NCBI RefSeq assembly: GCF_058153355.1
Contig: NZ_CM177019.1
Length of the DNA stretch: 64,000 nucleotides
Strand: one strand, 5' to 3'
This document shows, one piece after another, positions 1 to 41,045 of this stretch. Made by a program: the position numbers and the translations under genes. Numbering within the stretch: position 1 is the stretch's first letter; each line of letters starts with the position of its first letter. Under the pieces are notes generated by a model. That model had not been told where the DNA came from. It searched no databases and saw nothing but the letters and a program-made list of their open reading frames with translations.

Positions 1-4
1 TATA

Positions 5-22
5 ATATAGCCTGTGCTATAT
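5..22. promoter_or_regulatory. palindrome ATATAGC-N4-GCTATAT upstream of mntS; candidate MntR operator
   Basis: Perfect 7-bp inverted repeat about 60 bp upstream of the mntS start codon. MntR is known to repress mntS; the site assignment is inference. Confidence 0.4.
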
Positions 23-80
23 CTGTATGTAATGCAATCATCCCTCAAGGATCGACGGGATTAGCAAGTCAGGAGGTCTT

Positions 81-209
81 ATGAATGAGTTCAAGAGGTG
101 TATGCGCGTGTTTAGTCATTCTCCCTTTAAAGTACGGTTAATGCTGCTCTCTATGTTGTGCGATATGGTCAACAACAAACCGCAGCAAGATAAACCTTCC
201 GATAAATAG
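81..209 (+). CDS. mntS: small protein MntS (42 aa), manganese homeostasis
   Basis: ATG at 81 preceded by AGGAGG at 71-76. Translation MNEFKRCMRVFSHSPFKVRLMLLSMLCDMVNNKPQQDKPSDK matches my recollection of MntS. Below the 60-aa cutoff of the ORF track. Confidence 0.8.
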   Translation: MNEFKRCMRVFSHSPFKVRLMLLSMLCDMVNNKPQQDKPSDK

Positions 210-480
210 CGGCGTCGCGGTACGCCGCTTCACCCCTGCTTTTATGCAGGCACAACGCGTTTTGCTCTGAAAAACCCCACTTTTTGTCGGATTTGCAATC
301 CCCTTCGCAAAAGATTTGTTCGTCAGTAGTTGACCTGAACGGCTGCTCGCTCTATCTTCTTGCAGCCCTGCGTATATTGCGGCTCGCGGATGCGGACCCT
401 TTTCCCCTCTTCTCGCACTCTTGCAGGTATTGACCCTTGACGCCAGGGTAAGCACATGGCGTTTGTTACGATAGTGGCAT

Positions 481-2064
481 ATGAATTTAACCCTCAAAGA
501 ATCGCTTGTTACCCGTAGCCGGGTATTTAGCCCGTGGACTGCGTTCTACTTTTTACAGTCGCTATTAATTAACCTCGGCTTAGGTTACCCCTTCAGTTTG
601 CTATACACCGCCGCATTTACGGCTATTTTGCTTTTGCTATGGCGAACATTGCCTCGCGTACAAAAAGTTCTGCTCGGTGTCAGTTCACTGATCGCCGCTT
701 GTTATTTCCCTTTTGCACAGGCCTACGGCGCGCCTAACTTCAATACCTTGCTGGCATTGCATTCCACCAATATGGAAGAGTCGACCGAAATCCTGACGAT
801 TTTTCCGTGGTACAGCTACCTGGTCGGCTTATTTATTTTTGCGCTCGGCGTAATAGCAATCAGGCGGAAAAAAGAGAGCGAAAAAGCGCGCTGGAATACC
901 TTCGACAGCCTGTGTCTGGTATTCAGTGTGGCGACATTTTTTGTTGCTCCCATGCAAAACCTGGCCTGGGGCGGCGTATTTAAACTGAAAGATACTGGCT
1001 ATCCGGTATTTCGTTTTGCTAAGGATGTCATCGTCAATAATAACGAGGTGATCGAAGAGCAAGAACGGATGGCAAAACTTTCCGGAATGAAAGATACCTG
1101 GACGGTCACTGCCGTTAAGCCGAAATATCAGACCTATGTGGTGGTGATCGGTGAAAGCGCGCGTCGCGATGCCCTCGGTGCCTTTGGCGGTCACTGGGAC
1201 AATACCCCGTTTGCCAGCAGTGTTAACGGTTTGCTTTTTGCTGACTACATTGCCGCCAGTGGCTCCACGCAGAAATCGCTTGGCTTAACGCTCAATCGCG
1301 TAGTCGATGGCAAACCACAGTTTCAGGATAACTTTGTCACCCTGGCAAATCGCGCGGGCTTCCAGACCTGGTGGTTTTCCAACCAGGGCCAAATCGGCGA
1401 ATACGATACCGCCATCGCCAGCATCGCCAAACGTGCAGATGAAGTGTACTTCCTGAAAGAAGGTAATTTTGAAGCAGATAAAAACACGAAAGACGAAGCG
1501 TTACTGGATATGACCGCTCAAGTGCTGGCACAAGAGCACTCGCAACCACAGCTGATTGTTTTACATCTGATGGGCTCACATCCGCAGGCCTGCGACCGGA
1601 CACAAGGCAAATACGAAACCTTTGTGCAATCGAAAGAAACGTCGTGCTATCTCTATACCATGACGCAAACGGACGATTTACTGCGCAAGCTGTACGATCA
1701 GTTACGCAACAGCGGCAGCAGCTTCTCGCTGGTTTACTTTTCTGACCACGGTCTGGCCTTTAAAGAGCGCGGCAAAGACGTGCAATACCTTGCCCATGAT
1801 GATAAGTATCAGCAAAATTTCCAGGTACCTTTTATGGTCATTTCCAGCGACGATAAAGCGCATCGGGTGATTAAAGCCCGCCGCTCAGCCAATGACTTTT
1901 TAGGCTTTTTCTCGCAGTGGACGGGAATTAAAGCGAAGGAAATTAACATCAAATACCCGTTTATATCTGAGAAGAAAGCCGGGCCGATATACATCACCAA
2001 CTTCCAGTTACAGAAGGTAGATTACAACCATCTCGGAACCGATATTTTCGACCCGAAACCTTAA
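481..2064 (+). CDS. opgE: phosphoethanolamine transferase OpgE (YbiP), 527 aa
   Basis: Long ORF with N-terminal multi-pass membrane region and sulfatase-like domain; position between mntS and ompX matches the K-12 map. Confidence 0.9.
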   Translation: MNLTLKESLVTRSRVFSPWTAFYFLQSLLINLGLGYPFSLLYTAAFTAILLLLWRTLPRVQKVLLGVSSLIAACYFPFAQAYGAPNFNTLLALHSTNMEESTEILTIFPWYSYLVGLFIFALGVIAIRRKKESEKARWNTFDSLCLVFSVATFFVAPMQNLAWGGVFKLKDTGYPVFRFAKDVIVNNNEVIEEQERMAKLSGMKDTWTVTAVKPKYQTYVVVIGESARRDALGAFGGHWDNTPFASSVNGLLFADYIAASGSTQKSLGLTLNRVVDGKPQFQDNFVTLANRAGFQTWWFSNQGQIGEYDTAIASIAKRADEVYFLKEGNFEADKNTKDEALLDMTAQVLAQEHSQPQLIVLHLMGSHPQACDRTQGKYETFVQSKETSCYLYTMTQTDDLLRKLYDQLRNSGSSFSLVYFSDHGLAFKERGKDVQYLAHDDKYQQNFQVPFMVISSDDKAHRVIKARRSANDFLGFFSQWTGIKAKEINIKYPFISEKKAGPIYITNFQLQKVDYNHLGTDIFDPKP

Positions 2065-2071
2065 AAACAAA

Positions 2072-2098
2072 AATCCGCCCCGAGAGGCGGATTTTTTA
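2072..2098. terminator. bidirectional rho-independent terminator between convergent opgE and ompX
   Basis: Hairpin AATCCGCCcCGAGAGGCGGATT flanked by A-run and T-run. Confidence 0.7.
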
Positions 2099-2112
2099 TA
2101 TCACCGAAGTGA

Positions 2113-2628
2113 TTAGAAGCGGTAACCAACACCGGCAATCCAGGTGCCTACGTCAACGCTACGAATACGGCTCTGCTCGTAAGAGAAGTCCAGAGCAACG
2201 TTTTCCATCGGGTTGAACTGCAGACCAGCACCGTAGGAGAAACCGTAGTCGCTGGTGTCGTGTTTGTAGGTCGGGTATTCAGTGGTCTGGAATTTACCGT
2301 AACCCACACCCACTACACCGTAGATGCTTGCCCAGTCGTTAATGCGGTAAGCCGGACCAGCAGTGATGCCGTAGTACTGGTTTTTGTTGTAGTCACCAGA
2401 GCTTGCAGTACGGCTTTTCTCGGTGTAAGTGAAAGAACCGATCACACCCAGCGGGCTGTTGTCTTCTTCATAGCGGTATTTCAGGTTGAAACCGCCCATT
2501 TTGTTCATTTGGCCCTGAGCGTCGCTCTGTGCGTAACCGCCAGTTACGGTAGAAGTCGCAGCTACGGAAGTAGCTGCGGTGAAAGCCAGAACTGCAGCCA
2601 GTGCTGAAAGACATGCAATTTTTTTCAT
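2113..2628 (-). CDS. ompX: outer membrane protein OmpX (171 aa)
   Basis: Translation MKKIACLSALAAVLAFTA...VGYRF recognised as OmpX; start taken at the third Met of the 173-aa ORF. Confidence 0.95.
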   Translation of the reverse strand: MKKIACLSALAAVLAFTAATSVAATSTVTGGYAQSDAQGQMNKMGGFNLKYRYEEDNSPLGVIGSFTYTEKSRTASSGDYNKNQYYGITAGPAYRINDWASIYGVVGVGYGKFQTTEYPTYKHDTSDYGFSYGAGLQFNPMENVALDFSYEQSRIRSVDVGTWIAGVGYRF

Positions 2629-2980
2629 AACCACCTCAAATGTGATTCAAATAAGTCCTAAGTTTTAAATATATCAAAAATTAATGGGAAACTCTTCGCG
2701 ATTTGTGATGTCTAACGGGCCATTTCATGTAACAGAACGTTTCCATACGCCGCTATCCATCTAAATTTAAATCACTTTTTCAGAGAACTGCATAAGTATT
2801 ACGCATGTTTTCCCTGTCATTCATCCAGATTATTCCTAATCACCAGACTAATGATTCCATCAATCCTGGCGCATTTTAGTCAAAACGGGGGAAAATTTTT
2901 TCAACAAATGCTCAACCAGCATTGGGTATATCCAGTACACTCCACGCTTTACTTAGGTTTAGATATTTGTGGGAGAAAGG

Positions 2981-3868
2981 ATGCCTGGTTCATTACGTAA
3001 AATGCCGGTCTGGTTACCAATAGTCATATTGCTCGTTGCCATGGCGTCTATTCAGGGTGGAGCCTCGTTAGCTAAGTCACTTTTTCCTCTGGTGGGTGCA
3101 CCGGGTGTCACTGCGCTGCGTCTGGCATTAGGAACGCTGATCCTCATCGCGTTCTTTAAGCCATGGCGACTGCGCTTTGCCAAAGAGCAACGATTACCGC
3201 TGTTGTTTTACGGCGTTTCGCTGGGTGGGATGAATTATCTTTTTTATCTTTCTATTCAAACGGTCCCACTGGGTATTGCGGTGGCGCTTGAGTTCACCGG
3301 ACCACTGGCGGTGGCGCTGTTCTCTTCTCGTCGCCCGGTAGATTTCGTCTGGGTTGTGCTGGCGGTTCTTGGTCTATGGTTCCTGCTACCGCTGGGGCAA
3401 GACGTTTCCCATGTCGATTTAACCGGCTGTGCGCTGGCACTGGGAGCAGGGGCTTGTTGGGCTATTTACATTTTAAGTGGGCAACGCGCAGGAGCGGAAC
3501 ATGGCCCTGCGACGGTGGCAATTGGTTCGTTGATTGCAGCGTTAATTTTCGTGCCAATTGGAGCGCTTCAGGCTGGTGAAGCACTCTGGCACTGGTCGGT
3601 TATTCCATTAGGTCTGGCTGTCGCTATTCTCTCGACCGCTCTGCCTTATTCGCTGGAAATGATTGCCCTCACCCGTTTGCCAACGCGGACATTTGGTACG
3701 CTGATGAGCATGGAACCGGCGCTGGCTGCCGTTTCCGGGATGATTTTCCTCGGAGAAACATTGACACCCATACAGCTGCTGGCGCTCGGCGCTATCATCG
3801 CCGCTTCAATGGGTTCTACGCTGACAGTACGCAAAGAGAGCAAAATAAAAGAATTAGACATTAATTAA
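2981..3868 (+). CDS. rhtA: threonine/homoserine exporter RhtA (DMT/EamA family)
   Basis: 10-TM EamA-type protein in the conserved position; start placed at MPGSLRK inside the 299-aa ORF. Confidence 0.85.
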   Translation: MPGSLRKMPVWLPIVILLVAMASIQGGASLAKSLFPLVGAPGVTALRLALGTLILIAFFKPWRLRFAKEQRLPLLFYGVSLGGMNYLFYLSIQTVPLGIAVALEFTGPLAVALFSSRRPVDFVWVVLAVLGLWFLLPLGQDVSHVDLTGCALALGAGACWAIYILSGQRAGAEHGPATVAIGSLIAALIFVPIGALQAGEALWHWSVIPLGLAVAILSTALPYSLEMIALTRLPTRTFGTLMSMEPALAAVSGMIFLGETLTPIQLLALGAIIAASMGSTLTVRKESKIKELDIN

Positions 3869-4080: not shown

Positions 4081-4671
<591 letters not shown>

Positions 4672-39911: not shown

Positions 39912-40901
39912 TTAGCCGCCAATGTACGATAAGTTTTGCGTAATACCGGTGTTGTTTTGATGCAGGAAATGGGTCTGTTTCTTCTCCCGCAGCGCCGCTG
40001 AAATACGCGCTTCCAGCGCCTGTTGCTGGGTATCGTCTTCCAGCAGATCGCGCAGGTTAACGCCGCCTTCACCGAACAGGCAGAGATGGAGTTTACCAAT
40101 GGAGGAGACGCGCAGGCGGTTGCAAGTGGCGCAGAAGTCTTTTTCATACGGCATGATAAGGCCAATCTCTCCGGCGTAATCCGGATGACAAAAGACTTGC
40201 GCGGGACCGTCGCTGCGTTGACGTAATTGGTGGATCCAGCCGCGACGCAGTAACTCGTCACGCAGAACCTGACCAGAGATGTGATGCTTACGGAAGAGCT
40301 CGCTGCCCTCGCCCGTTTCCATCAGTTCGATGAAACGCAGCTGGATGGGGCGATGCTGGATCCAGTTCAGAAAGGTGTCGAGTTGGTGATGATTAACATC
40401 ACGCATCAGCACGGTATTGACTTTGACCTTCTCAAAACCGGCCTCAAATGCAGCATCGATCCCTGCCATGACCTGATTGAATTTATCCTGTCCGGTAATA
40501 GCATGAAACTGGCGAGCGTCGAGGCTATCGACACTCACGTTGATACCAGTAAGACCAGCATCACGCCAGTTCGCTACATCTCGTTCCAGACGGTAACCAT
40601 TGGTGGTGACCGCAATCTGGCGGATAGCGTCGTTTTCTCGCACAGCGGCGATGATATCGGTAAAGTCGCGACGCAAAGACGGCTCTCCGCCCGTCAGACG
40701 GACTTTTTCGGTGCCCAGACTGGCGAAGGCGCGCGTAACCCGGCGAATTTCATCGACGGTCAGAAAGCCTTTATTGGTGACGCCGCTCGGTTTGTAGCCA
40801 TCCGGCAGGCAGTAGGTGCAACGGAAGTTGCACACATCGGTAATCGACAGGCGCAAGTAGTAAAACTTACGCGCAAATGCATCAGTCAGTTGTGAAGCCA
40901 T
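39912..40901 (-). CDS. moaA: GTP 3',8-cyclase MoaA (radical SAM), 329 aa
   Basis: CNFRCTYC radical-SAM motif near the N-terminus; start set at [22 protein letters not shown] inside the 356-aa ORF. Confidence 0.95.
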
Positions 40902-41045
40902 GTACACCTTTCCAGATACGGGAGGCGAAATCATTTCTTCCTTCGCCCTGGTGGCAATCTTTGTAAGCATTGTCACGGCCAAAGCACCGTATCAGTTGAC
41001 CCAGGTGCAGAGGCTAGAGTGTTTAGTGGTTAAGCCGATACTAGC
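40902..41045 (-). promoter_or_regulatory. moaA 5' leader; expected position of the molybdenum-cofactor (Moco) riboswitch
   Basis: Established knowledge that the E. coli moaABCDE leader carries a Moco riboswitch; the structure was not verified here. Confidence 0.45.

Follow-up and report, generated by a model that had tools for sequence, protein, structure and literature searches.

The mntS/RybA locus of Escherichia coli and the MntR-type box over its promoter

The gene mntS and the RNA RybA have been in the literature since 2011, as has the repression of both by MntR; the target of the protein, MntP, has been published, and RefSeq annotates the gene. The primary paper, which mapped both the MntR site of mntS and the start of its transcription, is reportedly that of Waters et al. 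(2011). Transcription of mntS is repressed by MntR:Mn (PMC4361602), and the RegulonDB curation paper lists MntR as the repressor of mntS, mntH and dps (PMC4207228). The protein binds and inhibits the exporter MntP (bioRxiv 10.1101/2023.06.02.543501), and it raises cellular Mn (bioRxiv 10.1101/2023.06.02.543501; PMC4361602). It is thought to have descended from the signal peptide of SitA, a protein linked to MntR (bioRxiv 10.1101/2023.06.02.543501). From that proposed ancestor MntS differs in being the product of a free-standing, 42-aa gene without the mature SitA domain. At the level of RNA, Martin et al. (2015) described seven species of 205 to about 400 nt, which share one 5' end and each contain the open reading frame (PMC4361602).

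The stretch of DNA considered here, referred to below as the window, is 64 kb (64,000 nucleotides) long, and its first few hundred bases belong to this system. We regard it as almost certain that positions 1–353 are the mntS/RybA locus of Escherichia coli, with an MntR box over the promoter. The feature is neither a new member of its family nor a variant; its DNA is identical to that of the type example. mntS, RybA and repression by MntR are already known, and there is nothing new in the gene or in the box. What the locus offers instead is a comparison, base by base, with the described system, and in its course two points of regulation come up: an apparent second MntR box, and a candidate site for CsrA.

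Locus identity and the MntS coding sequence

Positions 1–233 are base-for-base the same as the corresponding DNA of E. coli K-12 MG1655 and of strain 2020CK-00188 in a gap-free, three-way alignment. K-12 therefore shares, unchanged, everything from the promoter-proximal box through the 5' UTR and the entire CDS to the 3' hairpin, and the neighbours opgE, ompX, yliM, rhtA and dps are common to both. The differences amount to no more than nine substitutions, every one of them 3' of the CDS (window 234–413, comprising the 3' portion of RybA together with the spacer in front of opgE; gap-free alignment), and to orientation: the window runs in the reverse direction, such that the window position equals 853078 minus the K-12 coordinate and window 1 is K-12 853077. 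In K-12 these bases are named mntS (b4705, 852869–852997; YP_009029995.1) and lie within the non-coding RNA gene rybA (b4416, 852725–853064). The label mntS is also attached to the identical bases of strain 2020CK-00188, where the protein is WP_001001761.1.

When window 1–480 was searched by megablast, 5421 of the 5426 complete E. coli genomes gave a match, with identities of 95–99.6%, and RefSeq has mntS annotated under the match in all of the matches listed. An earlier note on this DNA, made from the letters alone, had described the gene as missed by the accompanying list of open reading frames; this is true of that list, which has a threshold of 60 aa, but it does not extend to RefSeq. Gene order in strain 2020CK-00188 is ldtB, ybiR, mntR (on the opposite strand), mntS, opgE, ompX and yliM, and in K-12 MG1655 it is the same. 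Within the window opgE follows mntS at 481–2064. The regulator gene, mntR, lies off the window; in E. coli records with identical DNA its start is 185 nt upstream, on the other strand. The order ybiR–mntR, mntS, opgE recurs in all eight loci fetched from other genera, and in each of these orthologous loci a divergent mntR, recognizable by its Fe_dep_repress domains, is found on one side and an opgE of the sulfatase family on the other.

The coding sequence occupies 81–209 on the + strand, from an ATG start to a TAG stop, and encodes 42 aa (MNEFKRCMRVFSHSPFKVRLMLLSMLCDMVNNKPQQDKPSDK in the ORF listing). A Shine-Dalgarno sequence, AGGAGG, was read at 71–76 (+), 4 nt before the ATG, and the whole of window 1–240 runs tataATATAGCctgtGCTATATctgtatgtaatgcaatcatccctcaaggatcgacgggattagcaagtcAGGAGGtcttATG...TAG. 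Eight of nine genera have a GGAGG-type motif in this place (the form in Trabulsiella is GGGAGG). The earlier note had reported just such a short frame with a strong ribosome-binding site, and had named its product MntS; both statements are borne out. The frame is mntS, because its DNA is identical to annotated mntS and because its protein matches the NCBIfam equivalog NF033226 (small_MntS) with 96 bits (E = 6.3e-28), against a cut-off of 36 bits. Residues 1–39 align to positions 1–40 of the 41 in that profile.

Searching a collection of 5.8 billion proteins produced 136 homologues of about 38–72 aa. Those that carry source names are MntS, from Escherichia, Shigella, Salmonella, Citrobacter, Klebsiella, Enterobacter, Kosakonia, Kluyvera, Trabulsiella and Silvania, so the database match to MntS for which the note had asked is there. 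The precomputed family PF26599 (MntS) is assigned to 120 of the 120 homologues listed. The 42-aa protein matched no family in a local Pfam scan, which is not evidence against membership because PF26599 is probably newer than the local copy of Pfam. Among 12 orthologues 20 columns are invariant, M1, N2, E3, K5, R6, C7, H13, S14, P15, F16 and C27 included. The protein of the window has every one of these residues, within a free-standing frame whose N-terminal core is MNEFKRC..VFSHSPFKVRLML.

K-12 annotation treats the region as a non-coding RNA, and Martin et al. left room for an sRNA role in other contexts (PMC4361602). One might suppose from this that the locus is mainly a regulatory RNA, RybA, and that the 42-codon frame is incidental to it. 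We consider this very unlikely, and how the frame has evolved speaks against it. Over the 36 gap-free codons of a nine-genus alignment, in which 63 of 108 columns are invariant, the variable columns fall 12, 6 and 27 to the first, second and third codon positions. Synonymous codon differences outnumber non-synonymous ones in each of the eight comparisons with E. coli, and the frame is open in all nine genera, whereas both alternative forward frames are interrupted by stops in each of them. Judged by this coding signature, 81–209 is a translated gene under selection. The protein profile score, far above its cut-off, points the same way. So do published experiments: the Mn phenotypes of over-production were attributed to the protein rather than to the RNA, and did not depend on Hfq (PMC4361602), and SPA-tagged MntS of Salmonella is reported, in a published passage, to have been seen on a Western blot. 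The full RybA RNA, for its part, folds into nothing stabler than its shuffled counterparts do (z = −0.45). A dual function, protein and RNA together, is possible, and it is compatible with the mntS reading preferred here.

The MntR box and the mntS promoter

The perfect palindrome that the earlier note had placed at 5–22 is present there: a 7-N4-7 inverted repeat ATATAGCCTGTGCTATAT, written out as ATATAGC-CTGT-GCTATAT (no strand is assigned to it), with the core ATAGC-N4-GCTAT exact at 7–20. By itself such a palindrome proves nothing, because 7-N4-7 repeats are not rare in the window, which contains 13 perfect ones where composition-preserving shuffles contain 4.6 +/- 2.2. The particular sequence, on the other hand, is seldom found. 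With up to two mismatches allowed, ATATAGC-N4-GCTATAT has two sites in the 64 kb, at 5–22 and at 4103–4120, against an expectation of 0.24.

For comparison we used sites located here upstream of K-12 mntH, mntP and dps, rather than a curated list of sites. An exact ATAGC-N4-GCTAT core lies 17–30 nt upstream of the mntH start codon, in the sequence ACATAGC-CTTT-GCTATGT, and another is found in the dps promoter, in ACATAGC-CGGT-GCTATAC. Upstream of mntP, some 370–420 nt away, there are two core sites, mntP-a (ATTTAGC-CAAA-GCTATGT), with one mismatch in the core, and mntP-b (ACATAGC-TTAG-GCTATAT), which is exact. When these sites are aligned they condense to AYATAGC-N4-GCTATRT, and the mntS site fits throughout. 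The core is thus common to the mntS box and to those of the other genes; the difference is in the outer positions, which in mntS are AT and AT, and complete a perfect, 7 + 7 palindrome. The box of dps belongs to the window as well: it is the site at 4103–4120 (+), the one place in the 64 kb, 5–22 itself apart, that comes close to the mntS palindrome. It lies in the rhtA–dps intergenic region, where it overlaps a TATACT hexamer, and it precedes the dps ATG (4169) by 49 nt.

In the nine-genus alignment 13 of the 14 columns of the core box are invariant, and 16 of the 18 of the full palindrome, against 1 of 13 and 10 of 37 in neighbouring non-coding stretches. Of the two palindrome columns that do vary, one falls in the spacer and the other in the outer positions, and compensatory changes are absent; this fits a site that is read by protein, not an RNA stem. 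In position, the box spans from about −9 to +9 with respect to the annotated 5' end of the RNA at window 14, a start taken from the K-12 annotation, and it overlaps the hexamer TATAAT at 1–6. Motif, conservation and position together support the view that the palindrome at 5–22 is an MntR box.

Given how common perfect 7-N4-7 repeats are, and given that about half of this one is transcribed, it could be argued that the palindrome is a chance inverted repeat, or else a hairpin at the 5' end of the RNA, and that there is no protein operator. This we think more improbable still than the RNA-only account of the gene. Chance would have to place the same 10-base core at three other MntR-regulated promoters and, in 64 kb, the sole other near-match at the promoter of dps, and it sits poorly with the near-invariance of the core and the lack of compensation described above. 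As for a hairpin, the annotated start leaves only the 3' arm of the repeat in the transcript, and the RNA is therefore unable to form one. The notion that 5–22 is the operator of another metal regulator, such as Fur, we regard as the least credible of all and close to negligible: Fur and MntR do both act at mntH and mntP, and Mn and Fe regulation overlap (PMC8632737), but the 185-nt mntR–mntS intergenic region holds no better match to the 19-bp Fur consensus than one of 10/19, which does not overlap the palindrome and which random 185-nt pieces of the window typically equal or exceed in their own best match (mode 11/19), and the literature reports that mntS depends on MntR (PMC4361602; PMC4207228).

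Read as an MntR box, then, 5–22 falls upon what is likely to be the −10 hexamer of the mntS/rybA promoter: TATAAT at 1–6 (+), which ends 7 nt upstream of window 14. Seven of the nine genera have TAnAAT here, while Enterobacter has AGTAAT and Salmonella TAAAAC. A simple promoter scan called no + strand promoter at the start of mntS, and we attribute the missed call to a −35 element that is weak or absent. No convincing −35 was seen upstream: TTAACG would entail a 15-bp spacer, and AATTAA one of 17 bp. Any such element lies beyond the left edge of the window, and the conserved block likewise runs on past that edge; in the nine-genus footprint alignment it reads AAAAAATTAACGTTTTAGC[A/C]ATAGCTAT, then TAnAAT, then ATAGCCTGTGCTAT.

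Within the part of this block that is cut off there is a second MntR-like box, TTAGC-AATA-GCTAT (L001 2487–2500, equivalent to window −13 to 0 and to K-12 853078–853091). Twelve of its 14 columns are invariant in the nine genera, its center is 20 bp from that of the box in the window, and its half-site TTAGC is a variant that also occurs in mntP-a. Judging by these alignments, mntS probably has an operator of two boxes that bracket the −10, of which only the downstream one falls within the window. The earlier note's claim of an MntR-type operator stands, then, as regards motif, conservation and position, with the amendment that the 18 bp to which it pointed are probably not the whole of it. 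A window edge can cut a regulatory region in half, and this one has removed the upstream MntR box, any −35 and the gene of the regulator.

The arrangement at mntS, with two boxes 20 bp apart, center to center, over the core promoter, fits repression. It differs from that at mntP, where two boxes are 40 bp apart and lie far upstream of the gene, an arrangement that the literature calls activating. If the scheme as a whole is put together, a sigma-70-type promoter with TATAAT at 1–6 as its −10 would initiate the transcript at about position 14. In cells with enough cytoplasmic Mn2+, MntR loaded with Mn would sit on the inverted repeat at 5–22, and probably also on TTAGC-AATA-GCTAT, the center of which is 20 bp upstream, just off the window. 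Since both the −10 and the transcription start are overlapped by these boxes, MntR bound to them would exclude RNA polymerase and so keep mntS off. When Mn2+ is scarce the transcript would be made, and 42-aa MntS would be translated from the strong AGGAGG; by binding and inhibiting the Mn exporter MntP, as the literature has it, the protein would bring intracellular Mn up. That MntR represses by occluding the −10 together with the start site, and that the two boxes, which are two helical turns apart, are used cooperatively, is what we infer; the resulting repression could be cooperative and switch-like. The scheme takes repression of mntS by MntR:Mn and inhibition of MntP by MntS from published papers, and joins to them the identity and coding signature of the gene, and the motif match, the conservation and the location of the box over the annotated RNA 5' end, as found in this comparison. 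Nothing was found in the analysis that contradicts the explanation of the locus as mntS with an MntR box.

Directly 3' of the MntR box is a near-invariant block, CTGTATGTAAT, at 23–33 (+), or +10 to +20 of the transcript. Across window 21–33 (L001 2521–2533) 11 of 13 columns are invariant in the nine genera, which makes the stretch as conserved as the MntR boxes. It may extend the operator, and with it the surface contacted by MntR, or else serve as an element of the RNA 5' end. The boxes are also overlain, on the minus strand, by the promoter-like ATTACA-18-TATATT, which might be taken for an mntR promoter under autoregulation. This reading is not supported, because the mntR 5' UTR given by Potts et al. 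starts at K-12 853136. That start is 58 nt past the window edge, downstream of a conserved TACAAT, and the boxes are therefore upstream of the mntR promoter.

Hairpins of the RybA transcript and a candidate CsrA site

The RybA/mntS transcript, transferred from K-12 (b4416, 852725–853064, 340 nt) via the gap-free alignment, occupies 14–353 (+), and the window thus starts 13 nt upstream of its annotated 5' end. The region is identical to K-12 over 14–233, and is assigned to RybA on the strength of the K-12 annotation. No RybA family was reported when window 1–3000 was scanned with Rfam at E <= 1; there were only two sub-threshold matches, at 2061–2155, which we read as chance. Credible structure in the RNA, as far as folding models go, appears limited to two local hairpins, at 40–61 and 208–229.

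The second of these is GC-rich, AGCGGCGU-CGCGGU-ACGCCGCU (208–229, +), with an 8-bp stem in the fold, and overlaps the stop codon of mntS. Sixteen of its 22 columns are invariant in the nine genera. Most of the other genera have TTCATTTTTCTG after it; the E. coli sequence interrupts the run of T (TCACCCCTGCTTTT), and because of this a simple terminator scan called no canonical terminator after the mntS CDS. The hairpin is probably a weak, leaky, intrinsic terminator that yields the short species of RybA, a role that fits both the 340-nt annotation and the reported set of RNAs, which range from 205 to about 400 nt and share one 5' end.

The first hairpin, AUCCCUC-AAGGAUC-GACGGGAU (40–61, +), lies in the 5' UTR, is present in both the MFE and the centroid folds, and is a candidate site for CsrA. 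Its loop displays GGA at 49–51, and in the loop CA-N-GGA is invariant, with A-N-GGA-N-N found in 9/9 genera. Over the nine genera 87% of cells in the 6-bp helix pair, against 30–74% in controls slid along the alignment, and two pairs have changed on both sides (C-G to U-A, for example). The covariation score was reached by one of 500 shuffles, in a sample of nine sequences and two covarying pairs. Twenty nucleotides downstream of the hairpin comes the AGGAGG Shine-Dalgarno, which contains a second GGA. One GGA in a hairpin loop and another in the Shine-Dalgarno sequence is the usual layout of a leader repressed by CsrA.

The binding of CsrA at mntS has itself been published, in tabular form: a CLIP-seq peak on mntS, peak_81, is among those in Supplementary Data 1 of Potts et al. 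(2017). It covers K-12 852943–853065, or window 13–135, with its maximum at K-12 853004 (window 74), in the Shine-Dalgarno; its log2 enrichment is 1.93, and its padj 5.8e-12. The mntS leader resembles CsrA-bound leaders in that its conserved hairpin loop, AAGGAUC, and its AGGAGG are both under the peak, and differs from them in that an effect on translation is, for mntS, something that we infer. Of the 11 papers that mention both CsrA and mntS, none names the two together in its title or abstract, and passages from four of them report no functional test. Taken together, the hairpin and the peak suggest a candidate control in which CsrA, by binding the hairpin at 40–61 and the AGGAGG at 71–76, would repress the translation of MntS. 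If this is true, the control of Mn export is tied to the Csr network of carbon and stress regulation. The GGA hairpin beneath the CLIP-seq peak is a lead that derives from nine sequences and one high-throughput table. That mntS has both an uncharacterized, post-transcriptional control by CsrA and an apparent operator of two MntR boxes, and that the known system is to this degree extended, is a tentative proposal; we would put its chances at somewhat below even.

Other features of the window

Within the 3' part of annotated RybA, at 330–358 (+), there is a sigma-70-like TTGACC-17-TATCTT; it precedes the opgE start (481) by ~120 nt and, to go by its sequence, may be the opgE promoter. Farther along, ompX (2113–2634, −) is given in the ORF list with a GTG start, two codons upstream of the annotated ATG (173 versus 171 aa). 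The longer start is an artefact, because the list follows a first-start rule. Upstream of ompX, at 2681–2746 (−), the 21-aa frame METFCYMKWPVRHHKSRRVSH is YliM (b4736), which falls below the 60-aa threshold; in K-12 another CsrA CLIP-seq peak, peak_80, located in the ompX 5' UTR, overlaps yliM. A floor of 60 aa conceals functional small proteins, and in this window mntS (42 aa) and yliM (21 aa), 2.5 kb away, are two of them.

ARAGORN reported an 85-nt tRNA-Gly(GCC) at 19643–19727 (−). The call lies within a 762-aa ORF (19323–21611, −), which from its position in K-12 we take to be dinG, and is probably a false positive. A Moco riboswitch at 40889–41033 (−) reaches 101.5 bits, where the gathering score is 36; it is ordinary, and expected upstream of moaA.

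A group II intron occupies about 56580–58946 (−), between ybhJ and ybhC, and is matched by Rfam RF00029 and RF02012. Its 580-aa ORF (56664–58406) aligns to annotated ltrA genes for reverse transcriptase/maturase, and the intron adjoins a REP-type naRNA4 match at 58947–59017. In none of the 5426 complete E. coli genomes is the intron stretch covered to at least 80%; the nearest copies, at 97%, are on plasmids, beside hok.
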